Of a stretch of DNA of 63,918 bases, positions 15,001 through 48,503 are shown one piece after another. The notes under the pieces were generated by a model, which was not told the origin of the DNA, searched no databases, and was given only the letters and a program-made list of their open reading frames with translations. Every line of letters starts with the position of its first letter. Position 1 is the first letter of the stretch. A program made the translations under genes and the position numbers. The stretch spans positions 1 to 63,918 of IMG/VR virus record IMGVR_UViG_3300037722_000495. One strand, 5' to 3'. The DNA is from a virus. Lineage: Duplodnaviria > Caudoviricetes.

Positions 15001-18000
15001 ATTATCTAGAATCTTTTGATAAAATAAAAAAGTACTCCAAACAGAATCTCCTTAATTTAGAAAAATATAAAACTGCATTAGCTTTAGAACAAGATGCCAG
15101 TTCTTCAGGAGCACAGATTATTGCGCTAACAACTCGTAATAAGCAATTAGCTGAACTTTCTAATGTAATTCCAACGAATCAAAAGAAGCGTCTCTATGAT
15201 GAGATTGCTGCTGCAACTGCGAGAGATCCTCGATTTGTTAAACTCAATGAGAAATTAGGATTGACAGAGAAAGATTTACGCAAGGCAGCGAAGGCGCAAA
15301 ACATGGTAGAATGTTGCCATGTATAAACTCCGTGAATTCAGGGAAACCCATTTTTGAATGGGCAATCCTGAGCCAAGCTTTAGGAGGAATCCTTTAGAAG
15401 GTGCAACGACTAAGACAAACGGTCCAGAACGGATTATGAAGTCTGTAGAGATTATGCCGATCTCGAAGCGCGGAGACGTAATATTCCATAGTGGAGGTTT
15501 ACGTAAAAGATAGTCTAACCGTATAGTAATATACGACAAAAGGAGTAAAAATGAATTATTATAAACAATATTTTAATTTGATAGAAAAACATGGACAACA
15601 ATCAAAACCAATAGAAGGTTATTTTGAGAGACATCATATCATTCCACGCTGCTTGGGTGGTAAAGATGAGTACGATAATTTGGTCTATTTAAATGCTAGA
15701 TGTCATTTACTTGCTCATTGGTTACTGATGAAAGCTTTACCATCTGAGAAAGGACTTAAAATCGCTTACACAACAATGAGTTCTAGAGATGGTATTAAAT
15801 TATCTCCAATAATGTATCAAATAGCGAAAGATGCTATTAGTGGTGATAATTCAATGCTTGCACGTGCTGTAGTCACACCTTTAGGTGAATTTCCAACAGT
15901 AGCAGCTGCTGCTAAAGCACATAATGTAGTCAAAGCTATTATTTCTAGAAAAGCAGGAAGTAAAAGCATATTACACCAAGGTTATTATTGGAAAGATTTT
16001 ATTGTAAAAGGTGATGTAGCTGATGGTAGAAATGCACATCATTTAAGAAAAGGTGTTTGTACACCTTTCGGAAACTTTGAATCTACACGTGAAGCTGGAA
16101 GAGTGCTTGGCATTAATCACTCTACCATCACCAAAAGAATAAGACGTGGTGATAAAGGCTACTCCTATATAAATTGAACATTCTACGGAGCAGGAGAGAG
16201 AACAGGTATTTTGAATGTTGAAGGAAAGCTTGCTAAGATATTAGGAAAAGATACTGAAACATTAGTCGTTAAAGCTTCTGACAGAGATACTGTATTAAAT
16301 GAGATATCAGCTAGGATTGCAAGAGTTGAGAAATTCGATCCAGAAGCAGCTTTGGAATTACGCGCTTTAAGAAATGATGTGAAAGATGTTTTTAATAAAG
16401 GCTTAGATCCAGGTGATGATATCTTGGAAGCTTTATGGTTCCTCGATCCTAAAACGAGAGACCTGGTTGAAGTAATGTCAAAGAATTATACTAAAGTAAT
16501 CACTCCAATGGATTTTAAAATAATTGCCAATATAATGAGTGAACATCTTTCTGAACAAGTTCCTATTCTTAAAGATTTTACTCGTTTCTTCGGAAGATTA
16601 GCTGAGGAGTTTTTGATTCATTCGAAACCTTCTGAAAGTGCTATGGATTGGAAAAAGATTGCTTCCATAGCAATTACAGGGACAAGAAAGAGTGGCTATC
16701 GTTTACCACCCAGGATTAGTGAGTTCTTCGGATTAAATCCTAATGAGTCTTTAAAAGAGAAAACATTAAAACGTTTATCTTTCTGGAAACCTGATAGTCC
16801 ATTAGCTGATATTCTTTTTGGAAATAAACAATCCAAATACAGACGTACTGGAACTATTATTGGAGGAAAATCCATAGTACTGCCAAGTATAAAAATAAAA
16901 CTAGAAAAATTCAAGCATCTTAGAATGGAATTCTTTAAGAGTAAAGATATTATAAAAGAAATGCAAATATTTTACACAAACAAATTACCTAAGAGATGGA
17001 CAAATATTCCTTGGGTAAATTTTGATGGTAAAGTAGTAGAGCAGAATTTTACTCAAACATTTGAAGAAAGAATCTTTTATAAAGATAAATTTGGTAATTG
17101 GACCACTAATATTCTTCAAGTTCCTCAGAAAACTGAAGCGACTTGGTGGGAACAAGTGATTAATAAATCTGGTAAGATTAATGATATCGCAGATTCTACT
17201 AAGGCTCGTACTGCATATGCAGTTAACGGTATTGATTTGCCGTTATAAAACTCCGTGAATTCAGGGAAACTCTCTAGTAGACAATCCTGAGCCAAGCTTG
17301 AGTGGGAACACTCTTGAAGGTGCAACGACTATTATGTAGGGCAGAAGTCTGCTCGAAGCGCGGAGATAGTTAGCATAACTATAAGAGATAGTCTGATCTG
17401 TATGGTGACATACAGCAGTTAATACAAGGAGATAACTAATGAAGTTAGAACGCTTAAAAGCCCTTTTCTACTATAAAGATGGAAATCTGTATAATCGTGT
17501 TTCTAGAGGTTCAGTTAAAAAAGATTCACTTTCAGGATATATTGCAGAAGATGGCTACAGACGTATTAGAGTTGATGGTAAATATTATTATATCCATAGA
17601 CTTATATGGTTTTTAATTACTTCGAAAATAGTTCCAGATGATCTCTTTATTGATCATATTGATGGAAATCGACTTAATAATGATATAAATAATTTACGTT
17701 TAGCAACATCTTTGGAAAATCAATATAATAAATTTAGACAAAGAAATGGTTCTAGTGTTTATAAAGGTGTATGGTATGATTCGAAAAAATCATGTTGGAA
17801 AGCAGCAATACGCTTAAAAGATACTAGAAAATATATTGGACAATTTGAAAGTGAATTAGAGGCTGCTATTGCCTATGATAAAATAGCAATAGAATTGCAC
17901 GGAAGATTTGCCAAACTCAATGTATTAACGGGTCAGGAGTAACGAACCTGATTGAACATATTGAATCATTCTAATGATGCTGTAATTGTAAAAAGATTTC

Positions 18001-18353
18001 ATCTATGGGGTATGAAGAATGGTGTTTCTACTTCTACTATCCATGACGCCTTCTTTGCTAATGCTGCTGATATGTTGGAAGCAAGAAGAGCTTTACGACA
18101 AAATTACGCAAAAGCATTAGATAGAAATGTTATAAAAATGACTTTGGATGAAATGTTAAAAAGAGGATTACCTAAAGAAATATATGATAGATATCTTGAA
18201 GAAGCAATTGAAAAAGGTTTAATACCTACTCCTGGTAAATCTAGAATAAATGGTAAACTAATGAAGGATACCGATATATTGTTAAGAGAAGATATTCTTC
18301 AGGAGATTCCAGAAGGATTCTCAACAGATTATGGTTGGTATGGTGTAGGTTAA
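12048..18353 (+). CDS. MuF/SPP1-gp7 minor head protein fused to T7-type RNA polymerase; join(12048..15307,16177..17230,17964..18353), about 1567 aa
   Basis: N-terminal MuF motifs WQYVAKLDSQT..LC and PPAHFNCRS. RNAP motifs DHRARIY, motif A QDASSSGAQ, spliced motif B RKAAKAQNMVTFYG, spliced VNGNHSNDA, motif C IHDAF. Exons join in frame (4704 nt). Confidence 0.9.
15308..16176 (+). mobile_element. Group I intron 1 (869 nt) in MuF-RNAP motif B
   Basis: P1 ACATGGT/GCCATGT with U-G at splice site; P10 AGAATGTT pairs with exon AACATTCT; core GAATTCAGGGAAAC, AATCCTGAGC, GTGCAACGACT, AAGATAGTC; ends in G. Confidence 0.93.
15551..16177 (+). CDS. Intron-encoded HNH homing endonuclease
   Basis: HHIIPRCLGG..D..NLV.L...H..AH motif; two C-terminal TP.G.F....A repeats (NUMOD-like); AAGGAG RBS. 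Confidence 0.88.
   Translation: MNYYKQYFNLIEKHGQQSKPIEGYFERHHIIPRCLGGKDEYDNLVYLNARCHLLAHWLLMKALPSEKGLKIAYTTMSSRDGIKLSPIMYQIAKDAISGDNSMLARAVVTPLGEFPTVAAAAKAHNVVKAIISRKAGSKSILHQGYYWKDFIVKGDVADGRNAHHLRKGVCTPFGNFESTREAGRVLGINHSTITKRIRRGDKGYSYIN
17231..17963 (+). mobile_element. Group I intron 2 (733 nt) in MuF-RNAP
   Basis: P1 TAACGGT/GCCGTTA with U-G; P10 TGATT/AATCA; same core motifs; ends in G; splicing restores VNG-NHSND. Confidence 0.93.
17439..17942 (+). CDS. Intron-encoded HNH-AP2 homing endonuclease
   Basis: HRLIW..IDHIDGNRLNN..NLR HNH; YKGV..W.A.I..IGQF..E.EAA.AYD AP2 domain. Confidence 0.9.
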   Translation: MKLERLKALFYYKDGNLYNRVSRGSVKKDSLSGYIAEDGYRRIRVDGKYYYIHRLIWFLITSKIVPDDLFIDHIDGNRLNNDINNLRLATSLENQYNKFRQRNGSSVYKGVWYDSKKSCWKAAIRLKDTRKYIGQFESELEAAIAYDKIAIELHGRFAKLNVLTGQE

Positions 18354-18361
18354 AAACAAAC

Positions 18362-18375
18362 CGTTAAATTAACCC
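18362..18375 (+). promoter_or_regulatory. Motif A copy 1 (CGTTAAATTAACCC), candidate phage promoter
   Basis: One of 4 identical intergenic copies; upstream of scaffold and capsid. Confidence 0.65.
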
Positions 18376-18468
18376 ACATAAAAGATTCTAAGAATGTTTC
18401 TTGGAATTTTCTTTAAAATATGGAAACTGTGTTTCTAAGACTGAGTCGTACTCAAAAAGGAAATTATA

Positions 18469-23462: not shown

Positions 23463-26400
23463 ATGTCCGGTATTGTAATTGATGTCGATACCAGATCAGA
23501 ATCAACTAAGAAAGATCTTGGAGCTATAAATAGAAGTTTAGCAAAAATAATATCTTCTTCGAAATCTTCAAAGGACGCTTTAGGAAAGATTTCTTCTTCT
23601 GGTATAAATGGATTAAAAACGACAACTAATAGTGTAACAAAATCTTTTAAAGCACTCAAAGATACCAGTAGTTCTGCTCTAAGTACAGTTGATAAGTCTG
23701 CACAAAAGGCTGACAAATCTGTGAATAAAGTCAGAAATACTGTATTAACCTTGGCGGCCGCTTTTTTAGCAATCAAAGGTGTTAGTGTATTCTCTAAAAT
23801 GGCTGATAATATGACCAATTTAGAGAACCGATTAAAGATTGTTGTTAAAGAAACAGAAAAACTTGTACAGGTTCAAGAGAAATTGTATAAAATCTCAAGA
23901 GAAACTAGATCAGATTTTGCAATTACAGCTAGTACATATGTTGACTTTGTGAAAGGTCTAGAGAAGACTGCTATCTCAGAAACCAGAATTTTAAATGTCA
24001 TTCGTACTATTCAGAAAGCCTCTATTTTATCAGGTTCATCTCAAGAATCTATTAGAGCTGGTATGATACAGCTTCAGCAGGGTATTGCTTCAGGGACTTT
24101 ACGTGGTGAAGAATTGAACTCTGTATTGGAACAAATGAAATACCTTGGTCAAGGATTGATGTCTCAATTAGACATGAATGCAGGTTCCTTGAGAAAGTTT
24201 GCTGAAGAAGGTAAATTGACAACTGAAGTCTTGATTAATGCTGTAGAAAAAATGTCTGAAAGAACAGCCAGAGATTTCAAAGATACAAATATTACTATTG
24301 CACAAGCTGCTAGTCAATTAAAACTGTCTATTTCTGTTATGTTAGGAAATCTTCAAAATTTTCTTGGTACTAGTCAGGCTTTTGCTAATAGATTGGTAAA
24401 GATTGCAGACACTATTGATAGGATGTCTATTTCTACTACATCTGGTATCACTTTATTGAATCTCAAGATAAAGAACTTTATAGATGGTTTATCTATTTTT
24501 TCTGCAGCTCAATTAACAACTAGAGCAATGATAAAATTAGATATAACACCATTTGAAATTTTAGAGACTTATCAGAGTTATAGAAAATATAAACAATACT
24601 TAAATAAAATAAAAGATTTTCTTTCTTATCGTAGTGAGATGGAGATAAAACCTAAATTAAAATTTAATTTAACTGCTTCGAACTATAAGAATCAGATTAT
24701 TGAAACAAAAGATACAGAGAAGCAACTTAGTCCTTTAGAGAACTTCTTTTTGAATTTAAAAGAACTAGTATCAGAAACTGTTAATTTTATTAAGATTTCT
24801 ATTTCTAATTTATTAAGATTAATTCCTGTATTACAGACACCTGTTACTCCTTTATTAACTAAAATTCGTTCTGGTATTTTGGAAACATTGGCAGATTTAA
24901 AATCTTCAATTTTTCTTTATTTAGTACCTATCCGTAGTGAATTAGAGAATTTTAAAAATGCATTTTTTGCCTTTGCTACGGGAGATATGCGTCTTGAAAA
25001 TGCTTGGGTCTCGATGTTCAGAAGTAAGTCTCTGGATGATTTCGTAGATAAACTAAAGAAATTGAACAAGCTTCGCTCATCATATAAAATGAATGATAAG
25101 GTATTTCTCGGTAAAGAAATTTATAGAGATGTCATAAAAACTACTTATGCACTACAAGATTTCTTGATCTCAATAGGAATACTTCAAAATAAACTCATAG
25201 GTATTCGCCAAGCAAGAGTCGATAGATTTTTTAAGTATTTTACTAATGCAGCATCGGCGGCTTCCAGAGTTCTAAGAGATGTTATAGAACCAGTATTGTA
25301 TCCGATTTATCAAAAATTCTTATTAACATTTGTTAATATCTCTAAGACTATCATCGATATTTTATATGATACTTTTTCTCCTAATCTTGCAATACGTTTA
25401 TCTAATCGTTTAGCTGATGGTTTTGAGAAGGGTTGGAATAGTCTTTTCAAAGGTATGGAAGATTTAGAATCAGGAAAGATGAATTTTGGAAATATATTTG
25501 ATGATTCAGAACTTATACAAGCTGTAACTAAAGAATTTATTAAAATATCAAGAAGATTATTAGAATTCTTTAAAATTTTTATATCTAATCTTGGATCACA
25601 AATCTCCACTCTCTTCAAAGAACAAATATTAGGAAATATAAATTCTTTATTTGATTCCATGTTAAATAGGATCATAGAGAAATTCAAAAGATTTAAAGAG
25701 AAATTAAGTGGAATACTTGAAAACAAACTTCAAACAATAGAATTAAATTATGCATTAAATTTGGATAATTCTTTATTCGATAAAATGTTATTTAATTTTC
25801 ATAGAATGTTTCAAAAAATTAGAGAAATTACTAAAGAAGTTATTCCTGAAATTCTAGAAAAAATAAAAGAATTTTCAAACAAAGTCAATGGCTATTTCTA
25901 TGAAATTTATGATAAGATTGTAGGGCACTCCTATTGGCCAGATACAATAGATGGAATATTGAAACATACCGATCGCTTAAAAGACTCCGAAACAAAAGTT
26001 AGAAGTTTTAAGGATAGACTGTTAGAAATCTTTTCTGGAATAAAAGATAAAATACGAAATTTAGCTAGTGAATTAGGCGGTAATTTCGAACAAGCAATAA
26101 ATGCATTATTAAATGTTAATTTAGCAGACTCCTTCAAAGTACTCTCAAAGAATGTTGGTGCAGCTTTAATGGCAGGCTTTATGTTATTCTTTGGAAATAC
26201 TAAAGCCAAAATGATTGGAACTACATATTTATTCTCTGTTTTTAATGGTGCATTAAATAATGCATTCTCTTATATAACTCCTATGTTAGCAAAAGGAATT
26301 GGAACGAGTGGAGGATTATTAGCTGATCACGTAGTGAAAGGCTTCTTTAATGCCTTAAATTCGATTGTAATTGCCCTACCAGGTTTCTTCAAGACACTTT

Positions 26401-29400
26401 TTAAAGAGGTAGTACCTGGCGGTAATATGTTGTTAAAAATATTTAATATATTTCCAATGTTTCATAATAAACTTTTATATGCACTAGCAGGTCTAGCACT
26501 TGGTTATGCAAAATTTGCTAAGGGTGGTTCAAAAACTATTTTTGAAATTTTATTTGGCAAGAGTGCGACTAAAAAAGGTCCTGCTACCGAAGGAATCCTC
26601 TCATATGTAAGAGAAATATTTCGAATAAGACCAGCTAGAGGAGTCACCGATCCTTTCTGGAGAAACTTATTTGTAAATAAAACAGCAGCAAAATTAGCTG
26701 CACTCTCTTTTAGTAGTGTTCTTATTGAAAGCATTAGTTTTTTAGAAGCGGCAACAGTTGGTACTCCTCTTTTATTATTCGCATTATTGGGAAAAGATGG
26801 TGGTGCAAAGGCTAGTAGGGTGTTCTTTGTAACTGCTGAAATGATGATTGGTGGTCTATATAAACTGATAGCTAACAAAGTTTCATCTGTATTTGGTAAT
26901 AACTCTAAATTCACTAAAGTAGTAAATGCACCATTCAATTTACTCAATTTCATAAGAAGACCTAAATCAAATGAATTGGGCAAATTAAGTACATCTTTCG
27001 TAGATGATGCAAAAACACTTATTACTAATTTTAAAAGAAATTCTGATAAATGGGCAAAAGGAGAATTAAGTGCAAAGGAAGCTTTCACTACGATATTTTT
27101 AACAGATACTTTGAGTGGAGTTACTATTCCTTTTCAAGGATTCAAGCAAGAGATTACTGATTTCTTTAATAAAGATTTAGGAAAAGGTATTACTTTAGCC
27201 GGTTTATGGATAAGAGTAAAAGAGAGTACACTTAATGTCTTCAATAGACTCACTACATTCCTAACCAGTGGCACATTAAAACAAGCTTTTATTAGATTTG
27301 CAGAAGGTACTGGTGGTGCAATATCGAAAGTCTTTGCTAGTTCTACCAATCTGATAGCGGATGGTTGGCGAGTTTTAGTGAAATTAATTATGAATAAATG
27401 GTCTTTAATTGCACTGTTTACTATTGGTTTCGCTTCAGTTGCTAGAGCGGCTGTAGATGTAAAAGAATCTGTGTCAGATATTTCTTCTGGACTCAAGACT
27501 TTGTTGAAAGTAGTTGGCAGTATTACGATTGCTTTGATTGCTCTCGGATATGCTTTTAAATTAGTATCTGCATTTCAAATGGGTATGGGTTTATCTAAAG
27601 CATTCTTTCCAGAAAAATCTCAATTCTCACATGCAATAGAAGGATTCAGAGCTGTTGGACAACATGTTGCAGGAACCGTTTCTGGATTAATTAATTTTGG
27701 AAAAAGTACATATAATATTACCAAAAATAAATTATTTAATAAATCTTGGTGGACATCTATCGGTGGTGCGTTCTCTGACTTCTTAGGATTATCTGATGGA
27801 ACTAAAGGAAATTTCTCAGCTGTATTCGAAAGTATTTCTAAACTAGGCAATCCTTTCAAAGATTTAAAAGGTAATTTATCAGCTGTCAAAGAGATAGGGG
27901 TCAATGCTTTTGCAGCTTTGGTTGGTTCCAGCAGAGATATTACCAAAAACATAAAGAATATGGGTAAGGGTGTAAAGAAAGTTTTTGAAGGTGTAGGCAC
28001 AGCTTTATGGGATATTGGTGCATTGGCTTTCTCTGGTCTGGGAAGTATCTTCAAAAGATTAGGTGTAATGTTATTGAAATTTTTGGCACCAATCTTGGGT
28101 ATAGTTGCTGCAGTGTCTGGAGTAGGTGTTATTGGTTTATGGTTATTTGGACCTGCAGATACTTTTTTCGGCAATCTTGAATGGGCTTACGATAAAATAA
28201 GAGGAATCTTTGGGTTAGCTCCAAAGACCACTGAAGGTAAGTTTCAAGCATTTGCTAAAGAATTAGGACAAATCAGAGTAGGAAATGAAATTGTAGATTT
28301 CAGATCCATGATAGATAAAATTGATTTCAAACAAATAGATGAAGCTCATATTCCTATTCTTTTAGGTATTGGTAAAGAAGCTAAGGAAGGTTTGAAGAAT
28401 CTCAATGAATTGTATGTTAAACAAGGTTATGTATTAGACACACAATTAGCTGAACAAAAGAAATTAGAAGAACAAGTTAGAAAAACCTTAGGTCGTCAAC
28501 CTCAAAAAGAAGAAGCAACTCATTCAAGAAGATGGGAAGAATTTTCTAAAGACATCATAAAAGTAGATAACTCTTTATGGACTCTTATTAAAAGAGCTCT
28601 AGGTTGGACGCCTGAGCTGCGTAAACAAACAAAACAGATAGAAGAAATAAATAAAAATTCTATGAAAATATGGAGTCTCAGTGGATCTGAAAAATTAGAT
28701 AATTCAGTGAGATTACTAAAGAAATCTTTTGAAGATCTCTCTAATTTGAATCTGATAGATGCTTTCAATAATCTAGGGTTCTCGATGTACAATGCAATTT
28801 GGGGTTCTTTGGAATTTATATTCTTAGATATTCCTAAATGGCTTATTGAATTAGGCCAGGATGCAACTAATGCAATTAAAAATTGGGGTTGGGTAGATGA
28901 ATTAACCCTAGTATTTAAATTTATATCTGATAAATATTATGCGCTATTCAATGGAAAAGAAAGAATAAATCAATTTAAAGAAGGTGGCGAATATTTAGTT
29001 GCTTTATTTCAACGTAAATTCAACCAGGGTCCCTCTGAAGAACAATTAGGTCTATCAGCCTTTGGAAGCAGAATGCGCAGGAAAACTTCCAAGGAACTTG
29101 CTCCAGGAGTTTCTACTGAAAGTTATTTCACTAAAGAAGGTAGTGAAAGACTTAAGAAACTTGACGAGGAAATTATAAGAAAAAGTACAGAATTGTATGG
29201 TTATAATAAGACATCAGATACTTACGGTTTGAAACAAACTGAAAGAGACCCAGAATTATATAGAGATAATCGAGAACATGAAAGAGCAATGAGGATTCTG
29301 AAGAAAGAAATTACTAAATTAAAAGCTGATTATGAAAGATTTGTTTCCTTGGATGCTTATAGAGCTTTTGTAAAATTCGAATCTGAGAAGATTAATACTG

Positions 29401-34777: not shown

Positions 34778-37700
34778 ATGAGTATGGGTTGGGTAGCAGC
34801 TATAATCGCTGTAATTAGTGGAATTTATTCAGCAGTTAATCAGGCGAAAGCACGAAAAGCAGCCAAAAAACAAAAACGAAAAGCAGAAGCTCAAGCAGAT
34901 GCACAAAAAGGTTTTCAATTAGTAGTAGAAAAAGAAGTCAAATCACTCCCAGTAGCTTTCGGGAGAAATAAACTGGGTGGAGTGAGAGTATATCATAAGG
35001 TTAAAAGAAATTTCGTTTATTCAGATATTTATGGAACAGGAAGGAAGTTCTTTGCAAATCATGAAGCTTCAGCTATTAATGGAAAACATTATCGCCTTAT
35101 AAATCTTCTGTCAGGTACTCCTTCATTAGAGTTAGATGGTACAGGAAAGCCTGTAGTATATTCTTTAACACAAGCTAATCAACTCTCTGTATTTTATATT
35201 ACAAGAAACGAAGATTTATGGATACCAAGAAGTTATAAAAGTTTTGATGACTCCATAATATCTGGTGTAATGAAAACGATTACCCCTAATTTTTATTGGA
35301 TTGATAAATATCCAAATATAGATACAATATTTACATCTGAATGTTATACAGAAACGAAAAATGTAAAAGACCTTCAAGGAAATATTGAAGAGTTAGTTTT
35401 ATCTGATCTCTCCATGAGACCTAGCTCATTAGAAGATTTGAATATTATATTTCCTCCTTTTATTCCTGGTGGTCATAACAGTCTGGGGGCTTCTGAAGGA
35501 TGGATTTATAACAATTATTATTATATTCAACAAGTATTATCTCAAGGCAGTTTAAATGAAATCATTGAGCTCAATGTAGATGATAAGTATTATAATGATC
35601 CATCATATAAACCAGGATTACTTATTCATGCGTACAAAGATGGTGGTACTCCTTGTGCATTAATGACATCTAATGATGTAGAAAGAGCAAATGCTAAATT
35701 TACTAATATGTCCTTTCTAACGGGCGCCTTTAAATTGAATCGAGATGATCCCCAATTTATGGGTACTCCTGAAGTGCAAGCTTTTGTAGAAGGAATTAGG
35801 ATTAGAAGTATTAATAAAATTAATGGAATTTATTCTGAGAATTCCATACAAACTTACTCAAATAATCCTGCAAGAGTTCTTTTAGAGTATCTAAGAAACT
35901 CTAATTTTGGTATGGGTTTAGATGAAACTCAGATAGATTATGAGTCATTTTATAATGCAATGATCTTGTGTGATAGAGTAATCCTGGAAGATCAACCGAA
36001 AGTGGGAAAAATATGGATGAACAATCCTCATGTTTTAGGTGAAACTAATACTAAAACAAGAGATATAAAGATCTTTGAATGCAACCTTTCTATTGATACC
36101 ACGAAAGATTTCAGATCGAATATTGAGATGATTCTTGGTACGATGCATGAAGCTGATTTAATCTGGTCAGATGGAAAATACAAATTACAATTTTTATATC
36201 CTAGATTATTTGAGGACAATAATTATTATTCTCCAGGAGAAGTCATTCAAATTGATGATGAATATCCTAGACTTTTCAGGTGTATTACAGCAACAGATCA
36301 AAGTCCTCTGATTAATCCTACTAATTGGTTGGAAGATGTTGTTCAAATTACAATTACAGATGATGACATTCAATTATCTTCGGAAGTTACAATAGATTAT
36401 CCTTCAGCAGATAATAAGCTTAATTTTGCAACTATCAGATATTTTTCAGAAGATATGGATTTTGAGGAAGATACTGTTAGTTGGCCCAATAAAGAACCAG
36501 ATGATGTGAATGACATTGTCTATCAGACCTATTTTACTGAAGATAATAATATACCTTCAGAGACTGATGAATTTTTCTATGGTTGCTCCACCAGTATCCA
36601 CGCATTAGCTTATGCTGAGCAATTAGTAAGAGCTTCCAGACATCTGATAACATACTCTATGAAGGTCTCTTCTAGGATAATCGGAATTGAACCTGGTGAT
36701 ATTGTAAGAGTAAATTCTCAAATATTTTCAATAGATAATATCTTAATCAGAATTTCAGATGTTGAAACTGAAGATGGTGGTGTAGTTAAGATAACTGGTG
36801 AACAATTCGATGCTAATATTCTTGCATATAATATTCCATTTTATGAATTAGAAACTCCTGCTACATCCTATATAAATAACACAATCAAACAAGCAACTGA
36901 TCTAAGATTAACAGAAATAAAAGGTGAAAATAGAATCACTTACAGATTGTCATGGGCAAAATCCAATGACTCAAGAGTATCAAAGTATGCAATTAAATAT
37001 ACTACAGATACAATAGAAAATATTTCCAGTGCAACAGTATGGGAAGAGTATATTATAACTTATAATAATCAATGTAATATTTATACTTTGGATGGTACTT
37101 TCACTTTTGCTGTAGTAGCAATGACGGCTTCAGGTAGACAAGCACCATTTGAAGATTATGAATATGGTTCTACTTGGCCAGTCATAAGTGCCAATGTAAC
37201 ATCATATGAAAATGATATGGATCTCAAGTATGCAGATCTTGGTAATAAGATTGCAGATTTATTGTATGATAATATTCTAACTGCACAAGAAAAAATACTT
37301 TTATTAGAAGTATGGATTACTTATACTGCACAACATTCTCAGATAGTGTCGGAGGCTAATGCACTAAACATTACACTTGAATTGGTTTCTTATACAGAAA
37401 TTTTTGATGTACTAAACTCCTATATGCCAGTACTTCTTTCAGATTTAGAAAGTAATTCCAGGTTTGAAGATTTCTCATTTGTGGATACTGACTTATCTGT
37501 AAAACAACTTTCTGGAACATTGTTCAGGAGACATTGGTCATTAATATCAGAATACCTGATTATTCTTAAAAACAAAATGTCCATAAATAGTCTAATTCCA
37601 TTGCTCCCTGATACGCCTTATAATCTTGTAGTAACTGCTTATTTTAAAGAAATTGGATTAACTTGGGAAATCTCAGATGAAACCAATATAATGAATTATG

Positions 37701-40700
37701 AGGTTTGGAGAAATGTAATAAATGATCTAGGTACAGCCAGACCAGTAAAAATTACAACTTCCAGATTCGCATTAGATGCTCCTCCTGATCTATTTTTGGA
37801 AAGGGATTTTTATTATTGGGTAAGAGGAGTTAATAAAGATGGTCAGCCAGGAGAGTTCAATGCCATAGAAGGAACTCACTGTATAACTGTAAAAGATCCT
37901 TCTTACATTCTACAATTGCTTCAAGATGAATTAACAGAAAGCCAACTCCATTCTGATTTGACTTCAAGGATAGATCTAATTGATGCACCCTCTACTGGAC
38001 TTGTTGCAAAAACAGATTTAATTAATCAACAATTGAATAACCTCCAAGGTGAAGTTGCTGAGCTTTCTAATACTCCTTCGTATGAAGATACAGTCACATA
38101 TGAGATAGATGATTTAGTGGTTTATGAAGAAGCACTTTATAGAGCTTTAGCACAAACCACTAGTAATCTTCCCACTGATTTAAACTTCTGGATTAAGATT
38201 GGTGATTACACATCTTTAGGTGGTGTAGTATCCGGTCATTCTATACAATTAAATGATCATGAAAGTAGAATAACTTACAATGAAGGAGAATTTGAGATTG
38301 TAAATGGGAAAATTGATGGTACAATAATTTTAATTGATGATTTAGAAGAAGATGTTTCCTTACAATCCCAAGATATTACCTCTATAAAGAATACAATAAA
38401 TCACACAGAGTCAGGCAATGCTGCATTATATTCTAAGCAAAATTTAATCAACAATACTCTTAATTTAAATCTTAATGCTGATCAAAAGTGGACTGATATT
38501 GACAATAAACCAACTAATTTTGGTGGTCAAAATCTAATGAATCCTCGTTACAGTACATTCGAGGAAACAGATACACCTTCAGTATTCAATTCTAATATTA
38601 TAACAGATTTTTCTACAGTAGGTAATATTAGTCCAAAAGCTTTGAGAGTTTATGCTACAAGTTCATATGGAAATACTAAATTAGGAGTTAATTTCAGTGA
38701 TTATAATATTAATCTACCTCCTAATGGCAAATGGTTAGTAAGCTTTTATATAAAAAGTTCAACTACTAATAGAACAATGTATGCCCGTCTATTAGATGAC
38801 GGTGGATTTGCTTATGGTACTAATACATTTACTATGACTACAATAGATACTTGGCAAAGAAAATCTTTAATTTGTGATTGTTCTAGTGTGATAAGAACTA
38901 AATTTATAATTATGTTTGTTGCAGTATCTGCATATACCTATTTTACCATTGATGGAATTATGATAGAACCTGTTATAGGTGATCAAATAGAACCATCACC
39001 ATTTATCAGACCTGCATTTAACATTAATTATGCTCAATATGGTGCAGATGTTACTGCTACTTCAATTGCGTTTACTGGATTAGAGTCTAGGGTTGAAAAT
39101 ACTGAAGAGAGTATAAATACATTTACACAATCAATTAATACATTACAATCTACTATTAATAATGAAACTACTGGTTTAGATGCTACATATCAAAAAGCTG
39201 TTACTGTAGAAGGTGAATTAGATACTTTAAGTGGTACAGTTGGTAGTCATACTAACTCCCTTACTACTTTAAGCAATACCTTAAATTTAAATCTTAATGA
39301 AGATCAAAAATGGTCTCAAATTTTTGATAAACCTACCAATTTTGCTAGTGGAAATATAACACCATCAAGATATAGTGATTTTGAAGAGGATTTATTACCT
39401 CCATTAAGCTTGTTCAATTGTACTGCAATACAAGACAATACAATATTTTATTATGGTCATAATTCTTTAAAATTAACAAAAACTGGAATAGATGCATATT
39501 GCTTTTTATCTAATACCATAATTGATTTTAATGTAAAATTAACTCCAAATAGAAAATGGATTCTTTCTGCTTTTATTAATTGTGAATTAACTAATCAACC
39601 AATTCAATTAACAATTAGAAAAAGTGATTTATCTTATCCTGTAATTGAAACTTTATACACATCCGCTATATCAGGGCAATGGATTCGTTTACACACCATC
39701 GTAGATTTAAGCTCATCTCCAGTAAATGCTGGCAACATAAAAATTGATTATGATGGTGAAATAGGTTCTAGTATTTGGATTGATGGTGTAATGTTAGAAC
39801 CATTAATTGGAGATCAAACTACTCCTTCTATATATGTAGTGCCTAATTTAGAAACAACTTTTTCTCAATACGGAGCAGATATTACTGCAACTTCAGATGC
39901 TTTCGTTGAATTAGATACCACAGTTACTTTAATGGATGGTGTTGTAGTTGGACATACTAATAGTATTACATCATTAGATACAGCAATAAATCATCCTGAC
40001 ACAGGTTTACTAAAATTAAATTCTGAACATTCTGTTAGATTAGATGCAATTGATAATATAGAGACTGGTGCTCTTGCAACTTTAGGAACACAAGTCAATA
40101 TTTTATCTGCAGATATTTCTAATGAAGAAACTGGGTTAGCTGCTGCACACGCTGAGATAATTACGATTTCAAATGATTTGACTACTATAGCTGGTTCTGC
40201 TTCTTCTAGTGCAGAAAAGATATCTCAATTGTCTGCTATTGTAGAAGGTAATATTGTGATCTTTGAAGAGAAATTTAATTCTCCAGGAGGTTATAATTCT
40301 TGGGATAAATTTTCAGGAACAACTAACCTTACTCTGTTAGAAGATTCAACTAGAATAGGAGGTAAATATCTTCGAATAGGAAATAATTCAGGAAATGATA
40401 CAGCGTGGATTAATAATATACTCAGAATCCCTGTTAGAGATGATGTGATCTATAAGATTACAATAGTTATACGAAGGGTATATGGAAGTGGTACATTTTT
40501 TGGAGGTTTCACAGGTTTCAATGAATCTTTAACAAAAACTATAAGTTCAGTAGATAATGAATACCCCTTGCGCAATGTTTGTGCTTCTTTTTATACTGCA
40601 GCTAATAGTAATCCTCTTAGTAATCCTGAATGGACAACTTTAGTAGGTTATTCAAGATCTATTAATGGTCCAGAATGGCCAGAAGAAGCTGTTGGACAAA

Positions 40701-41821
40701 GACAAGTAATTTTCACTTCCAAAGTAAAATATATTTCTCCACTTGCAATTTGTAATTATAATGGTTTAGCAGGTATAACAGACATTGATCACATTAAAGT
40801 TGAAGCAATTGGTGGAACTAACTCAGCTGTAATGGAAATCAGATCATCTGTAATGTCCAATATTGATGGGAGATTAGCTGCTCAACATACACTAAAAACA
40901 GATGTAAATGGTAAGTTAGCTGGATTTGGTTTAGCTAATGATGGAACAATCTCTTCATTTGATTTTCTAGCTGATAAATTCTTCTTTTCAAAACCAGATG
41001 GTACAGGTACTAAATTATTAATGGCTATTGATGGTACTCATGGAGTAATCATTGATAATGCATTAATTAAGAATCTAACTGCAGCAAATATAGTAGCAGG
41101 TTCTATTACAGCTGACAGATTCTCTGTAGTAGATTTGTCAAGTATCACAGCAAATATGGGTGCGATAACTGCAGGTACAATATTAATGAGTAATACCTCG
41201 TCATGGGTCAAGAGTAATAATTATATAGCAAATTCTGCAGGATTTTTAATTCGTGGAGATGGTTTTTCAGAATTCCAAAATGTGAAAGTAAGAGGGGATG
41301 TCGAAGCTACCTCATTAAAAGCAAATACTCTAATGGTAAATACTGGTAACATTGTTGATCTATCTGTCAATTCATTCAAGATTGCCAATGGTGCCATCGT
41401 AGAAACTGCCTTCTTTAAGAAAACAACTAATACAACTATCAATGCAGGGTCCACTGTAAATTTGGCTACTTTATCTGGATTTGTTCAATCAGGTTACCCT
41501 ATACAGTGTTATATTGAAACCACATTTTTAGGAGCTACTGGATTAAACGGAGATAAAATTACAAATATCCGTTTTGAAATTCTTAGAAGTGGTGCAGTAA
41601 TTTATACTTTTCCTTGGTCAGATTCACATATACACACAGTTGATGCATTTGATAATGAAATAATAACTGCTGAGATGAAAGTAGTGCCTGCACATATAAT
41701 TTATGATACATCTACCATAACAGCTGATTTAGTGTTCAGAGTAACCTGTCCTTATAATGGTGATAATTGGTACGGCACTTTTGGACCTATTTCATTATTT
41801 CTTATGACACCGAGGAAATGA
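34778..41821 (+). CDS. Central tail fibre / host-specificity protein (J-like), 2347 aa
   Basis: LPV.FG, SNNPA.VLLEYL, EPGDIV hub motifs; FN3-like YYWVRGVN; TLKTDVNG..AGFGL..F.ADKF (DUF1983-like). Confidence 0.85.
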   Translation: MSMGWVAAIIAVISGIYSAVNQAKARKAAKKQKRKAEAQADAQKGFQLVVEKEVKSLPVAFGRNKLGGVRVYHKVKRNFVYSDIYGTGRKFFANHEASAINGKHYRLINLLSGTPSLELDGTGKPVVYSLTQANQLSVFYITRNEDLWIPRSYKSFDDSIISGVMKTITPNFYWIDKYPNIDTIFTSECYTETKNVKDLQGNIEELVLSDLSMRPSSLEDLNIIFPPFIPGGHNSLGASEGWIYNNYYYIQQVLSQGSLNEIIELNVDDKYYNDPSYKPGLLIHAYKDGGTPCALMTSNDVERANAKFTNMSFLTGAFKLNRDDPQFMGTPEVQAFVEGIRIRSINKINGIYSENSIQTYSNNPARVLLEYLRNSNFGMGLDETQIDYESFYNAMILCDRVILEDQPKVGKIWMNNPHVLGETNTKTRDIKIFECNLSIDTTKDFRSNIEMILGTMHEADLIWSDGKYKLQFLYPRLFEDNNYYSPGEVIQIDDEYPRLFRCITATDQSPLINPTNWLEDVVQITITDDDIQLSSEVTIDYPSADNKLNFATIRYFSEDMDFEEDTVSWPNKEPDDVNDIVYQTYFTEDNNIPSETDEFFYGCSTSIHALAYAEQLVRASRHLITYSMKVSSRIIGIEPGDIVRVNSQIFSIDNILIRISDVETEDGGVVKITGEQFDANILAYNIPFYELETPATSYINNTIKQATDLRLTEIKGENRITYRLSWAKSNDSRVSKYAIKYTTDTIENISSATVWEEYIITYNNQCNIYTLDGTFTFAVVAMTASGRQAPFEDYEYGSTWPVISANVTSYENDMDLKYADLGNKIADLLYDNILTAQEKILLLEVWITYTAQHSQIVSEANALNITLELVSYTEIFDVLNSYMPVLLSDLESNSRFEDFSFVDTDLSVKQLSGTLFRRHWSLISEYLIILKNKMSINSLIPLLPDTPYNLVVTAYFKEIGLTWEISDETNIMNYEVWRNVINDLGTARPVKITTSRFALDAPPDLFLERDFYYWVRGVNKDGQPGEFNAIEGTHCITVKDPSYILQLLQDELTESQLHSDLTSRIDLIDAPSTGLVAKTDLINQQLNNLQGEVAELSNTPSYEDTVTYEIDDLVVYEEALYRALAQTTSNLPTDLNFWIKIGDYTSLGGVVSGHSIQLNDHESRITYNEGEFEIVNGKIDGTIILIDDLEEDVSLQSQDITSIKNTINHTESGNAALYSKQNLINNTLNLNLNADQKWTDIDNKPTNFGGQNLMNPRYSTFEETDTPSVFNSNIITDFSTVGNISPKALRVYATSSYGNTKLGVNFSDYNINLPPNGKWLVSFYIKSSTTNRTMYARLLDDGGFAYGTNTFTMTTIDTWQRKSLICDCSSVIRTKFIIMFVAVSAYTYFTIDGIMIEPVIGDQIEPSPFIRPAFNINYAQYGADVTATSIAFTGLESRVENTEESINTFTQSINTLQSTINNETTGLDATYQKAVTVEGELDTLSGTVGSHTNSLTTLSNTLNLNLNEDQKWSQIFDKPTNFASGNITPSRYSDFEEDLLPPLSLFNCTAIQDNTIFYYGHNSLKLTKTGIDAYCFLSNTIIDFNVKLTPNRKWILSAFINCELTNQPIQLTIRKSDLSYPVIETLYTSAISGQWIRLHTIVDLSSSPVNAGNIKIDYDGEIGSSIWIDGVMLEPLIGDQTTPSIYVVPNLETTFSQYGADITATSDAFVELDTTVTLMDGVVVGHTNSITSLDTAINHPDTGLLKLNSEHSVRLDAIDNIETGALATLGTQVNILSADISNEETGLAAAHAEIITISNDLTTIAGSASSSAEKISQLSAIVEGNIVIFEEKFNSPGGYNSWDKFSGTTNLTLLEDSTRIGGKYLRIGNNSGNDTAWINNILRIPVRDDVIYKITIVIRRVYGSGTFFGGFTGFNESLTKTISSVDNEYPLRNVCASFYTAANSNPLSNPEWTTLVGYSRSINGPEWPEEAVGQRQVIFTSKVKYISPLAICNYNGLAGITDIDHIKVEAIGGTNSAVMEIRSSVMSNIDGRLAAQHTLKTDVNGKLAGFGLANDGTISSFDFLADKFFFSKPDGTGTKLLMAIDGTHGVIIDNALIKNLTAANIVAGSITADRFSVVDLSSITANMGAITAGTILMSNTSSWVKSNNYIANSAGFLIRGDGFSEFQNVKVRGDVEATSLKANTLMVNTGNIVDLSVNSFKIANGAIVETAFFKKTTNTTINAGSTVNLATLSGFVQSGYPIQCYIETTFLGATGLNGDKITNIRFEILRSGAVIYTFPWSDSHIHTVDAFDNEIITAEMKVVPAHIIYDTSTITADLVFRVTCPYNGDNWYGTFGPISLFLMTPRK

Positions 41822-44276: not shown

Positions 44277-44295
44277 AAATTGTTAGGAGAAAAAC

Positions 44296-44499
44296 ATGAT
44301 TGTTACCAGAACTTCACTTCTTACTAGAAAAATACATTCTATAGAAATAGATGTAGATCCTGAAAAACTTGAAGTATATGAACAAGGTGAAGGATTAGCT
44401 CAAGACATGTTTCCTAATTTAACACCCGATGAACGTGAATTTATTATAACTGGCATTACAAAGGAGGAGTGGAATGTTGCGTTTTCTAATGATGAGTAG
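44296..44499 (+). CDS. Conserved-type phage hypothetical protein
   Basis: QD.FP.LT.DEREFI.TGIT.EEW motif; AGGAG RBS. Confidence 0.6.
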   Translation: MIVTRTSLLTRKIHSIEIDVDPEKLEVYEQGEGLAQDMFPNLTPDEREFIITGITKEEWNVAFSNDE

Positions 44500-44953: not shown

Positions 44954-44972
44954 AAGAGTAACATGTAAAACA

Positions 44973-45000
44973 CGGAAAATAAAGTATCTTATATGAAAGA
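44973..45000 (+). promoter_or_regulatory. Motif B copy 2
   Basis: CGGAAAATAAAGTATCTTATATGAAAGA, intergenic, upstream of the genes leading to RNAP2. Confidence 0.7.
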
Positions 45001-45105
45001 TAGAAATCATATTTCAGAAAGGAGGTTAATATTTCTAAATGAATAAAGAGTAAAATCTTAACAGAATCTTAACAGAATCCTACTAGAACTCAAAAGGAGA
45101 AAACT

Positions 45106-45336
45106 ATGAAAAAACTTATTGAAACTACCCTCAATTTCACACTCGCAGTATTCGTCATTGGTCTCGGTATTATGGCATTCAAATCACCCACCTTCTTCGG
45201 TAACCTCATCATCTCCCTCGCAAACATCAAAGTATTGGCAATTGCTGCTGTAGCTTTCGGTGTTCTTTACATGTTTCTTCTTTGGCGTCATAAGAACCGT
45301 CAGGAAGAAAACAAGGAAGGAGGTCACAAATGTTAG
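45106..45336 (+). CDS. Small membrane protein (2 TM)
   Basis: AAGGAG RBS; hydrophobic segments. Confidence 0.6.
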   Translation: MKKLIETTLNFTLAVFVIGLGIMAFKSPTFFGNLIISLANIKVLAIAAVAFGVLYMFLLWRHKNRQEENKEGGHKC

Positions 45337-45521
45337 GAGTACTTTTTACCTGGGTGATCATTTTCGCGCTTATCGCATACACTGCCGACAAGATCATGCG
45401 TCTCTCGGTCTTCATGACAAGATTCTCCCAAAAACAAGAAAAAGAGAAACAAGAAAAGAATCGAGAACAGAATATTAAATCAGCAATCGTCAAACCAGGA
45501 TGTCTTTCGAATCCTAATTAA
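45330..45521 (+). CDS. Small membrane protein
   Basis: GGAGG RBS; N-terminal TM segment. Confidence 0.55.
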   Translation: MLGVLFTWVIIFALIAYTADKIMRLSVFMTRFSQKQEKEKQEKNREQNIKSAIVKPGCLSNPN

Positions 45522-45536
45522 ATAACAGGTTACTCT

Positions 45537-45662
45537 ATGGCTGCGAAGAAGGATAATTTATTAATAGAACTTTTAATAGCATCCTTAATAATTGTTCTGT
45601 TAACAAAATTAATCTTTCTCGCAGTCATCTTTCTTATCCTACTCTTATTGATTAGGATTTAA
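45537..45662 (+). CDS. Small hydrophobic peptide (41 aa)
   Basis: MAAKKDNLLIELLIASLIIVLLTKLIFLAVIFLILLLLIRI; weak RBS. Confidence 0.35.
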   Translation: MAAKKDNLLIELLIASLIIVLLTKLIFLAVIFLILLLLIRI

Positions 45663-45664
45663 TC

Positions 45665-45748
45665 ATGTGGTACATAATCTTGTTTATAATCGTAGTAATA
45701 ATTTTTTTCATCGGATTTATCGCAGAATTTATAGATAGATTAAAATAA
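45665..45748 (+). CDS. Small hydrophobic peptide (27 aa)
   Basis: AGGA RBS; MWYIILFIIVVIIFFIGFIAEFIDRLK. Confidence 0.4.
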   Translation: MWYIILFIIVVIIFFIGFIAEFIDRLK

Positions 45749-45800
45749 CCCAGGGGGACCCTAAATCAGTTCCCCCTGGGTTCACCTTCTTTTTTTTTTT
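45747..45800 (+). terminator. Strong hairpin with T11 tract just upstream of RNAP2
   Basis: AACCCAGGGGGA/TCCCCCTGGGTT 12-bp stem, then CACCTTC and T11. Confidence 0.6.
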
Positions 45801-45809
45801 GGAGTATGA

Positions 45810-48503
45810 ATGAGAGATATTCTAATCAACGATCTCAAGAAAAGACTGGCAGATGAAATAACAAATAACATGCCATTAAAGTATCTCAGAAATCATTCCA
45901 TTGAAGAATGTTTCAACTTAACTGTACCAGTAATGTATCTGTATACAAAGAAACCTAAGAGGCAACAAGATGTGATCATTTTGATGTCTGAATTAATCTG
46001 TGCAATAGGACATAAAATAAGAGATACATTTAAACTTAAGAAAGACACTTCTTTAGCTGCAAAAACTGGTGCATTTTTTCTTTATTCTTTTGAAAGAGCA
46101 GAAATCGTAAGAACGTTTTTAGGTAAAGGAAAAAATGATCACGGAACAATGCTGGTTGATCTTTTAGAACCGGATACTCTCTCAGAGTTATGGACTAACT
46201 TACCAGAAGAACACAAGGATAAACTACCTTCAGAAACACCTTTCGAACCTTGGATGACTACTAAACATCCAACTGGTAAAAACATGGTGAAAACTCGTTA
46301 CAATCCTGTTTTAAAAACAATCAAATTAGACACCCACAAAATTCTATTTGATAATTTAAACAGATCACAACAAGTTGGTTGGTTAATTAACAAAGAGATT
46401 TATAGTATATCAAGGTGGGCTTTGAGAAATAAAGTTGAAGCCTTTTCAGATATTTGGGAACAACACAATCCCGAAGCTAAAGCAACAAAGTTAAGAGAAG
46501 CGAAATCTATAATTGAAATTGCTACATTGTTTTTAGATAAAACTTTCTATCATCTTTATAGCTACGATTTCAGAGGTAGAAAATATGTTTCTACAGCCTA
46601 TCTAAATGAACAAGGGGGTGATCTGTCAAGAGGATTACTTTTGAGAAAAGATAAGAAATCAATAGGAAAACAAGGTTTCTTTTGGTTGATGGTCTCAATT
46701 GCAACAAATTGGGGTGGTGACTCCGGTAGAGAAGATGAATTGAAAACTGACAAGATCCCATTAGAAGACAGATGTCTTTGGTCGGTAGATAATGAAGAAA
46801 TCTTATTAGCCTATGCAGAGCAACCTAAGATTAATCAGGGGTGGATGTCAGCTGATAAACCTTGGCAATTTTTGGCTGCTTGTATTGAACTAAAGAATCT
46901 AAGAGTATGGCAATGTAATTTCACAAGAGAAAGAATTGATACTCCTTCTGGAACATTTTATACTAGTCCAGATTTCAATAATTTTGAATATGAGTCTCAT
47001 CTTGAATGTTATGTGGATGGTAGCAACAACGGTAGTCAACATTTATCTGCACTCACAAGAGATCATGTGACTGCACCCTTAGTTAATCTTGTAAAAAGTA
47101 AATTTCCTGGAGATCTTTATAAGTTTATAGCAGATAATGTATGGGATAAGATACAAGCCATCTTAGATGATTTTGATGATTCGATTATCATGAAATGTGA
47201 AATTTTCATTGATAACATGATAGAGTTTAAGAAACGAATTATCGCAGCTGAACCAAATAGTGATATACGGAAGGAAGCTGTAGAAAGTATCAAAAAGTTA
47301 AAAAATGATAATAAAGGTATCAGTGAACAGGCATGTGCAGTGTTCTGGTGTAGGATAAAGGACGCTAAACATAAGAGAAAAATTGTTAAAAGAAACATTA
47401 TGACACTTCCGTTGATTGGCGGAAGTAAAATCGGGTGAACTCAGGAGATCTCCATTCGCCGTGGACAATCCTGAGCCAAGCTTGAGTGGGAACACTCTTG
47501 AAGGTGCAACGACTAGAACATACCATCCAGGACGGATGATGAAGTTCATAGAGTCAAGTGACTCGAAGCGCCCGACTTATAAGCGACCAAATTGCTTATT
47601 TGATGATATAGTCTGGTCTGTATAGTAATATACAGCTGTAAGTGATTTTGAACAGAAAGGAGGATATAAAGGAAAGAAATTATATTTAGGTCTTTTCGAT
47701 ACTGCTGAGGAGGCCAATAAACGTGTAAAAGAAGAAACGAAGAGATTGTACGGCGAATTTGCAAACTCTGATTAACAAAAATCACTTACGGGTAAAGTCT
47801 AATGAACTTTGCTGAACATTACGATGGCGGAACTCCTTATGGCTTAGGACAACAGCAAATAGATGATGCAAAGAAACATGGGATAGAGCTGCTCTATTAC
47901 ATGGAACATAAATGGGGAGCATACCTAGGGAGACTTATATTTGAGACATGTAAAAGTGCTCTCCAAAGACCAATGCAATTGCTATCTATATTTGAACAAG
48001 CTGGAAAGAAAGCAGAAGAGGAAAATAGATGTTTATCTTGGACAGTTCCAATAACTAACTTTCCCGTAGTACAATATTATACTGAAGGAATTGTTCAAAA
48101 AACTTGGATACAATATGGTCCTCCTTATGGTCCTAAACTAAGTACTGGTTATTACCGTAATACCTTACAATTACGTTTATGCTTCATTGAGAAAACAATT
48201 CTATCAAAAAGAAAGCAATCTCAGGGAGCCAGTCCTAATGCTATTCACAGTTTAGATGCAGCGCATTTAGCATTGACAATCGATAGGTGTCCTTTTCCTG
48301 TGACTACTATTCATGATTCTTTTGGATCACTCCTTGCTGATATGCCAGATTTATACAGAATTGTCAGAGAGACTTTTGTAGAGTTGTATCTGGAAAATCC
48401 TCTGACAAAATTAATGGAAGATATAGGAGGAAACATAGATGAAATAGAAATGGGTGAACTAGATATCACAGAAGTCTTGGAATCCGAGTATTGTTTTTCT
48501 TAA
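45810..48503 (+). CDS. T7-type single-subunit RNA polymerase (RNAP2); join(45810..47412,47824..48503), about 760 aa
   Basis: DFRGRKY, motif A DGSNNGSQH, spliced motif B RKIVKRNIMTLPYGG, SPNAIHSLDA, motif C IHDSF, terminal YCFS. Confidence 0.93.
47413..47823 (+). mobile_element. Group I intron 3 (411 nt) in RNAP2 motif B
   Basis: P1 ACTTCCGT/GCGGAAGT with U-G; core AATCCTGAGC, GTGCAACGACT, GATATAGTC; P3 TCGGG/CCCGA; ends in G; T+AT restores the motif B Tyr. Confidence 0.92.
47662..47775 (+). pseudogene. Remnant of HNH-AP2 homing endonuclease (AP2 tail only)
   Basis: Reads GYKGKKLYLGLFDTAEEANKRVKEETKRLYGEFANSD*, similar to the intron 2 endonuclease C-terminus; no in-frame start. Confidence 0.75.

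Follow-up and report, generated by a model that had tools for sequence, protein, structure and literature searches.

The DNA analysed here (the window) is the entire IMG/VR virus record IMGVR_UViG_3300037722_000495, 63,918 bases from an uncultured sediment phage, estimated to be about 92% complete. It carries two genes for T7-type single-subunit RNA polymerases (RNAPs). The first, MuF-RNAP, comes directly after the portal gene, with a short open reading frame (ORF) between them, and joins a MuF head domain to a polymerase; the second is referred to as RNAP2. Both are interrupted by group I introns, two in MuF-RNAP and one in RNAP2, at active-site elements of the polymerases (Table 1). We consider it very probable that all three are group I introns of the usual phage kind and that they entered both polymerase genes by homing driven by the endonucleases they encode or once encoded.

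The introns were identified with the Rfam group I model RF00028 (Intron_gpI), whose gathering score is 50 bits. Three matches were obtained, at 15298-15536 (75.6 bits), 17152-17415 (72.0 bits) and 47335-47635 (75.5 bits), all spanning the full model (positions 1-253) with E values of 2e-16 to 2e-17, and the whole 63.9-kb record gave no further match. This bears out the original prediction, made from the letters alone, that three group I introns interrupt both T7-type RNAP genes at active-site elements, and a fresh reading of the sequence arrived at the same boundaries. At each 5′ splice site a U is paired with a G that closes a P1 helix of 7-8 base pairs (bp), the guide sequence being placed a few bases inside the intron. 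Counted by script, P1 has 7 bp in intron 1, 7 bp in intron 2 (6 bp by manual reading) and 8 bp in intron 3, and shuffled exon ends gave a P1 of that length in 23, 126 and 25 of 5000 cases, respectively. All three introns end in G, and a P10 pairing is present in intron 1 (7 bp) and intron 2 (5 bp). At the intron-1 site of one IMG/VR relative (locus L023), the 3′ exon carries a synonymous substitution and the guide loop has changed along with it, so that P10 remains paired, a compensatory pattern. An in-frame stop is met after 6, 6 and 9 codons past the 5′ splice sites of introns 1, 2 and 3, where the ORFs end at 15326, 17248 and 47438.

The nearest named relatives of the MuF-RNAP gene are EBPR siphovirus 1 (58% identical), the Naomviridae roseophages DSS3_VP1 and DSS3_PM1, and the Pelagibacter phages Kolga and Aegir. 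Both polymerase genes of DSS3_VP1, the MuF-RNAP gene of DSS3_PM1 and the RNA polymerase gene of Kolga are contiguous. For the junctions, all pairs of an exon-final T and an intron-final G lying no more than 45 nucleotides (nt) from the proposed sites and leaving no stop were scored against an intron-less homologue. The predicted junction scored highest in every case, among 43 candidates for intron 1, 71 for intron 2 and 68 for intron 3, and in every case it also had the longest P1. Splicing at these positions leaves open frames of 1567 amino acids (aa) for MuF-RNAP and 760 aa for RNAP2. The U-G pair at the end of P1, the terminal G and the in-frame restoration that had been predicted are all present. 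The spliced products are collinear with the intron-less genes of DSS3_VP1, of EBPR siphovirus 1 (at the intron-2 site) and of T7. At the intron-1 junction the window reads AQNMV/TFYGAG (the slash marks the insertion point) and the contiguous gene of DSS3_VP1 reads AANMVTFYGAG. The intron-2 junction, AVNG/NHSNDAVIV, corresponds to GVNGNHSNDAVIV in DSS3_VP1 and GVNMNHSNDAVIV in EBPR siphovirus 1, and the intron-3 junction, IMTLP-Y-GGTPYG with the split tyrosine set apart, corresponds to TMTLGYGGTEYG in DSS3_VP1 and VMTLAYGSKEFG in T7. A single contig from another sediment run tracks the window as far as 15307 (5 mismatches in 46 nt) and then runs on into sequence resembling exon 2; it appears to represent a relative's allele that lacks the intron. 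The DNA contigs of four runs that were aligned to the window contained no joints across the introns.

The RNAP2 product aligns with T7 RNAP at the aspartate of motif A, the R-x3-K-x7-YG pattern of motif B, the His784 element and the HD of motif C. Its exon 1 is 32% identical to the DSS3_VP1 RNA polymerase, and its exon 2 is collinear with both DSS3_VP1 and T7 RNAP. In MuF-RNAP, the Pfam family Phage_Mu_F is matched at aa 145-250 of exon 1 (43.9 bits), this exon is 58% identical to gp47 of EBPR siphovirus 1, and a divergent polymerase of the T7 type makes up the C-terminal half. The Pfam model for that polymerase family, PF00940 (cut-off 22 bits), recognises the intron-less homologue gp28 of DSS3_VP1 at 27.1 bits and gp49 of EBPR siphovirus 1 at 23.8 bits. 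A profile of the MuF-RNAP family aligns with T7 RNAP over three collinear regions (the DxRGR region, motif A, and His784 to motif C), the last corresponding to T7 residues 769-843 and covering exon 3. With the full-length profile, T7 RNAP is found at no better than E 0.005-0.01; hhalign gave a probability of 95.8% for the comparison of the MuF-RNAP family with the T7/RNAP2 family, and a phmmer search of the solved structures with an intron-less MuF-RNAP homologue returned nothing useful. For a sub-profile restricted to motifs A and B, the best solved relative was RNAPII of coliphage N4 (6dt7 chain B, named RNAP2) at E 0.0027, and this alignment matched, in one stretch, motif A together with five motif B residues (R, K, M, Y and G). 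This one sub-profile alignment, together with the residue pattern, supports the reading of R-K-A-A-K-A-Q-N-M-V-T-F-Y-G as motif B of MuF-RNAP. On the N4 RNAPII register intron 1 lies three codons upstream of the motif B tyrosine and 8 nt from the intron-3 position, and given that register the predicted spacing of the two motif B introns holds. Intron 2 lies one codon before the His784 equivalent in the T7 alignment. The MuF domain and the position after the portal gene suggest that the MuF-fused enzyme may be packaged in the virion. If it is indeed the early (virion) polymerase, both transcription stages would depend on splicing, because of the structure of the two genes.

Table 1. Features of the window discussed in the text
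Feature	Position	Strand	Description
MuF-RNAP exon 1	12048..15307	+	MuF domain, motif A and first half of putative motif B; ORF 12048..15326
Intron 1	15308..16176	+	869 nt; in putative motif B after second base of Val codon (NMV/TFYG); in-frame stop 15324-15326
Intron-1 endonuclease gene	15551..16177	+	208 aa; NUMOD1/HTH type; Pfam HNH 32.6 bits, NUMOD1 23.9 bits
MuF-RNAP exon 2	16177..17230	+	Collinear with contiguous genes of DSS3_VP1 and 35 IMG/VR loci
Intron 2	17231..17963	+	733 nt; between codons aligned with T7 F782 and V783 (AVNG/NHSND)
Intron-2 endonuclease gene	17439..17942	+	167 aa; Pfam HNH_3 54.8 bits, AP2-like 31.7 bits
MuF-RNAP exon 3	17964..18353	+	His784 equivalent and motif C (IHDAF); PF00940 19.0 bits
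RNAP2 exon 1	45810..47412	+	Motif A, motif B to first base of Tyr codon; PF00940 107.3 bits
Intron 3	47413..47823	+	411 nt; in motif B Tyr codon after base 1, aligned with T7 Y639
Intron-3 HNH_3-AP2 endonuclease remnant	47644..47775	+	C-terminal ~40 codons only; no Pfam match
RNAP2 exon 2	47824..48503	+	Rest of motif B, His784 equivalent, motif C; PF00940 86.2 bits
MuF-RNAP gene, whole	12048-18353		Directly after portal gene
terL	582-1925		Single ORF
Portal gene	10213-11760		
Cys-rich ORF	11761-12045		94 aa; between portal and MuF-RNAP genes
Very long ORF	23463-33038		3191 aa; structural region, downstream of capsid gene
Very long ORF	34778-41821		2347 aa; structural region, downstream of capsid gene
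polA	50388-52274		Single ORF
Ribonucleotide reductase gene	56652-58583		Single ORF
tRNA-Leu	60870-60957		Anticodon taa; single copy

Introns 1 and 2 each contain an intact endonuclease gene. In intron 1 the sequence AAGGAG stands 6 nt before the ATG, and the intron-2 gene also has a Shine-Dalgarno sequence. The stop codon of the intron-1 gene spans the 3′ splice site, an arrangement also seen in EBPR siphovirus 1 and L023. The AP2 score of the intron-2 protein is slightly below the cut-off of 33.3 bits. Homologues of the intron-1 endonuclease are found in introns at the same site in relatives, with 72-80% identity in L011, L023 and EBPR siphovirus 1 (74% for the last) and 34% identity in L018/L020, and the intron-2 protein is 74% identical to an ORF in the same-site intron of L014. 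In L011 (415-861) there is also a free-standing HNH_3-type ORF directly upstream of the MuF-RNAP gene, 36% identical to the intron-2 endonuclease. No intact ORF is present in intron 3. The remnant there aligns with the C-terminus of proteins encoded at the same site in L114 and L115, which resemble the intron-2 endonuclease in type; the introns at this site in L091, L114, L115 and L116 are 714-751 nt long and have an intact ORF of 151-152 aa. The predicted set of intron endonucleases is therefore intact in introns 1 and 2 but reduced in intron 3 to a C-terminal tail. Introns 1 and 2 are probably still mobile, because they have intact HNH genes with their own ribosome-binding sites.

At the nucleotide level, a megablast search of GenBank phages revealed no close DNA relative of the window, the sole match being 43 nt of intron core. 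That match covers 17255-17297 in the core of intron 2, which is 97.7% identical to sequence in two Escherichia phages, Bas93 and Bas94, within their DNA polymerase I genes; related introns probably lie there. With blastn, the core of intron 3 matches introns in Pseudomonas, Vibrio, Aeromonas and Synechococcus (psbA) phages and in E. coli B phages. Introns 2 and 3 have an identical core segment of 52 nt in common (17280-17331 and 47464-47515), and it is precisely at this repeat that contigs assembled from the likely source run break off or fork.

The distribution of introns was followed in 44 MuF-RNAP loci sampled from IMG/VR, which form 36 clusters at 97% nucleotide identity. Eight of the 44 have at least one group I intron and 36 are contiguous. 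The intron-1 site is occupied, by introns homologous to intron 1, in 4 of the 37 loci that span it (L011, L018, L023 and L041), and one further locus, L020, starts inside an intron there; the intron-2 site is occupied in 1 of 43 (L014, 60.4 bits with RF00028); and a third site, GETF/RPF, aligned with T440/K441 of T7, is occupied in 2 of 33. The other matches above the gathering score in these relatives reached 79.1 and 66.3 bits. In the GenBank record of EBPR siphovirus 1, an unannotated homologue of intron 1 is present at the same site (RF00028 40.5 bits, E 3e-8) and intron 2 is missing; the pieces of the split gene are labelled ‘head protein’, ‘HNH endonuclease’ and ‘hypothetical protein’. 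In G021, a relative with a 91.9-kb record, four RF00028 matches of 72-89 bits fall within the MuF-RNAP gene (C1:31679-35243; loci L152, L155, L158 and L160), and the sites include GETF/RPF and approximately KA/Q, the latter equivalent to the KR/N site of the paralogue described below.

Two other groups of insertions in MuF-RNAP were considered as introns and rejected, being in frame, stop-free and devoid of RF00028 matches. One is found at residues 989-996 (L018:3406-3840, L022:986-1417, L046:4293-4724 and L041:3104-3784) and the other at residue 1113 (L045:5082-5459 and L048:4456-4833). They amount to 126-227 codons, lie just upstream of motif A and just downstream of motif B, and are best read as additional protein domains.

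For RNAP2, a profile scan gave 519 confirmed relatives, the best 80 of which were analysed (64 clusters at 97% nucleotide identity). Among these 80, introns were found in 15 loci and the gene is contiguous in 65; all nine of the close loci are without an intron. RF00028 gave 15 matches at the gathering level; these fell in 13 of the 16 loci whose matches were split. The split match of L129 was not counted as an intron, there being no RF00028 match at gathering and no convincing junction. The sites were read at the base level and are numbered after T7 from a MAFFT alignment. They are FYH/LY, just upstream of DFRGR (one locus); DG/S in motif A (G538/S539; four loci); KR/N (R632/S633; four loci); the Tyr639 codon after its first base, which is the intron-3 site of the window (five loci: L091, L114, L115, L116 and L124); a site one base before it (A638/Y639; two loci of one cluster); and GLG/EQQ (R647/Q648; two loci). 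The five same-site introns finish in ...ACG or ...ATG, resembling intron 3. One RNAP2 gene (L124:4680-8334) has four introns, with RF00028 scores of 83.2, 79.3, 58.5 and 72.1 bits, at DG/S, KR/N, the Tyr639 codon and GMG/EQV. The exons between them include pieces of 19 nt and about 27 nt, and such micro-exons cannot be separate genes.

Across the two polymerase families there are thus at least eight intron sites, all of them where the proteins are best conserved. When 8-residue windows are ranked by conservation, the three sites of MuF-RNAP reach the 96th-98th percentile, a result equalled by only 2 of 100,000 random triples, and five sites of RNAP2 reach the 89th-97th, equalled by only 13 of 100,000 random sets. 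Occupancy of these conserved sites is patchy. Two near-identical pairs, L045 with L044 and L123 with L105, differ by the precise presence or absence of an intron, the flanks of the second pair being 96-98% identical. Downstream of the L045 intron, a stretch of 626 nt (L045:4443-5068) is 85.6% identical to the intron-less L044, as against 93-98% for the flanks. This is the pattern that would be expected of co-conversion during homing.

A census of host genes was made by searching 23 related whole records with RF00028 and assigning the matches by tblastn. Six introns were assigned to MuF-RNAP (one each in G001 and G022, four in G021), eight to RNAP2 (one each in G010, G017, G018 and G022, four in G023), three to terL (G008, G010 and G018; loci L146, L147 and L151, at three different positions) and two to the ribonucleotide reductase (RNR) gene (G003 and G023; loci L144/L145 and L161, between residues 349 and 350). 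No intron was found in polA among the 23 records. These proportions are biased because six of the records were chosen for their known polymerase introns; the other 17 were chosen for length alone, and their six introns comprise four in a single MuF-RNAP gene, one in terL and one in the RNR gene. In this clade, then, introns are often hosted by the polymerase genes, though terL and the RNR gene serve as hosts too. In the window itself terL, polA and the RNR gene are uninterrupted, each being a single ORF, as had been predicted.

The homing reading offers a simple account of this pattern. The endonucleases would recognise the invariant DNA coding for the polymerase active site, and the introns would be located in catalytic motifs because the target sequence there cannot vary. 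An intron would be copied into the cut target by repair, and self-splicing would render the insertion harmless. In the messenger RNA (mRNA), the in-frame stop 6-9 codons into each intron would halt ribosomes, P1, and P10 where it is present, would align the exons, and the ribozymes would remove themselves, yielding one MuF-fused polymerase of 1567 aa and one polymerase of 760 aa. The endonuclease gene may decay at a later stage, as it appears to have done in intron 3, which would now only be inherited or lost because only the tail of its endonuclease gene is left.

Several observations weigh against this account or parts of it. A look-up of RNA runs containing window sequence returned none, and no spliced junction was seen. 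A P10 for intron 3 was looked for by sequence reading and not found. Among the relatives, the insertions of L041 (48.1 bits) and L045/L048 (39.5 bits) are read as introns yet fall below the Rfam threshold; that of L023 has no RF00028 match at E 0.1 and was called an intron because of its sequence and the endonuclease within it; and those of L091, L117 and L121 have no match at gathering and are introns by sequence reading only. On the side of the host gene, the separate exon pieces of MuF-RNAP score 16.9 bits (exon 1) and 19.0 bits (exon 3) with PF00940, both below the cut-off, and global MAFFT and hhalign alignments fail to place the putative motif B stretch of MuF-RNAP against motif B of T7.

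It has been proposed that the intron endonucleases also serve as weapons in competition between phages, cutting the intron-less RNAP genes of co-infecting relatives; such cuts would cripple transcription in the rival. This would extend the homing reading rather than replace it, and we regard it as possible, if doubtful. Two intact HNH genes lie within the gene for the candidate virion polymerase, and closely matching intron-less alleles are common in the same habitats: compared with 36-mers of the window's spliced junctions, intron-less alleles are identical at 24-32 of 36 nt, with the differences mostly at third codon positions, and matches of at least 24 of 36 nt were found in 34 of 44 loci for intron 1, 42 of 44 for intron 2 and 68 of 80 for intron 3. 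The sediment run with the intron-less relative noted above is separate from the likely source of the window, and there is a precedent of a kind in PhiPA3 gp210, an intron reported in the virion RNAP gene of a jumbo phage (bioRxiv 10.1101/2023.09.30.560319). Against it, intron 3 has lost its endonuclease, and most relatives are intron-less, as would also be the case for plain selfish elements cycling between gain and loss. The idea covers introns 1 and 2 only, because intron 3 keeps just the C-terminal tail of its enzyme. A bolder form, in which the polymerase genes would be the main battleground of HNH endonucleases in this widespread clade of phages from the environment and an intron would immunise its owner's transcription machinery whilst disabling the virion and second polymerases of a rival, is speculative and probably goes too far.

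Reading of both polymerase genes requires splicing, and condition-dependent self-splicing might therefore act as a regulatory gate that times or throttles the two enzymes. In phage T4, splicing efficiency has been tied to translation and growth state (work cited in PMC10914365). However, the genes are contiguous in 36 of 44 MuF-RNAP loci, in 65 of the best 80 RNAP2 loci and in the cultured phages DSS3_VP1, DSS3_PM1 and Kolga, so that the polymerase programme runs without introns in most relatives, and even genomes sharing 96-98% identity can differ in which sites are occupied. Since most relatives have no introns, we think a regulatory role quite improbable. That the genes instead work in pieces, with unspliced fragments translated separately and assembling as do the two subunits of N4 RNAPII or the products of the split nrdA gene in phage Aeh1, is hardly credible: N4 RNAPII (6dt7 chain B) does provide an example of a T7-type polymerase that functions as two polypeptides, and in-frame TTG codons are available at 16211 in exon 2 and at 17952 for exon 3, but a full-length ribozyme match with site-specific P1 pairing lies exactly at each break, introns 1 and 3 break within codons and in the middle of motif B, no ribosome-binding site was seen on sequence reading before the downstream fragments, and L124 has its micro-exons.

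Endonuclease-driven homing thus remains our preferred explanation, and under it the window holds standard homing introns in a host gene family that is new to the literature searched. T7-type single-subunit RNAPs join the short list of phage genes favoured by homing introns. There is a practical consequence for annotation, as gene callers split these polymerases into ‘head protein’, ‘HNH endonuclease’ and ‘hypothetical proteins’, and in this way the MuF-polymerase fusion and the two-polymerase programme are hidden. Among the relatives, moreover, occupied and empty sites form a natural series, with at least eight sites, up to four introns per gene, and endonucleases that are intact, degraded or missing. 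Such a series is suited to the study of the cycle of gain, decay and loss, and would allow a test of whether these elements play a part in phage-phage competition. The endonucleases themselves are candidate site-specific nucleases for sequences that code for the polymerase active site. The main value lies in the family-wide pattern of intron sites.

Group I introns are documented in the td, nrd, DNA polymerase, terL, psbA and multisubunit RNAP genes of phages (PMC5746245, PMC10914365, PMC12350094, PMC8323127, PMC8541194). A full-text literature search, supplements excluded, found no publication reporting such an intron in a gene for a T7-type RNAP, and a literature search found none in N4-type RNAP genes. 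The DSS3_VP1 paper mentions a single intron, in terL, and does not contain the words ‘RNA polymerase’. The statement that no T7-type example was known stands in so far as it concerns the literature searched, but does not extend to the databases, where such introns are present in IMG/VR relatives and in EBPR siphovirus 1.

The closest known parallels are the intron reported for PhiPA3 gp210, introduced above, and those reported in the multisubunit RNAP genes of AR9 and PBS1 (PMC12350094). There too, group I introns with homing endonucleases reside in phage RNAP genes, virion-associated ones included, and several per gene are possible. The difference lies in the hosts, which are multisubunit enzymes in those phages; the window's are T7-type single-subunit polymerases (PF00940), one of them fused to a MuF head domain. 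The multisubunit RNAP fold is unrelated to that of T7 RNAP. With the introns of the T-even phages (td, nrdB and nrdD), and with others in DNA polymerase, terL, RNR and psbA genes, the window's introns share their Rfam family. They also resemble the T-even type in having an endonuclease ORF, an early in-frame stop and an insertion point in conserved codons of essential genes, but they differ in the host gene; terL, polA and the RNR gene of the window have no introns. As for the polymerases, coliphage N4 uses a relay in which the virion RNAP gp50 is followed by the T7-like RNAPII. The window resembles N4 in encoding two T7-type polymerases, one of which is probably delivered with the virion, but its candidate virion enzyme is a 1567-aa MuF fusion, and two of its named relatives, EBPR siphovirus 1 and Kolga, are called siphoviruses.

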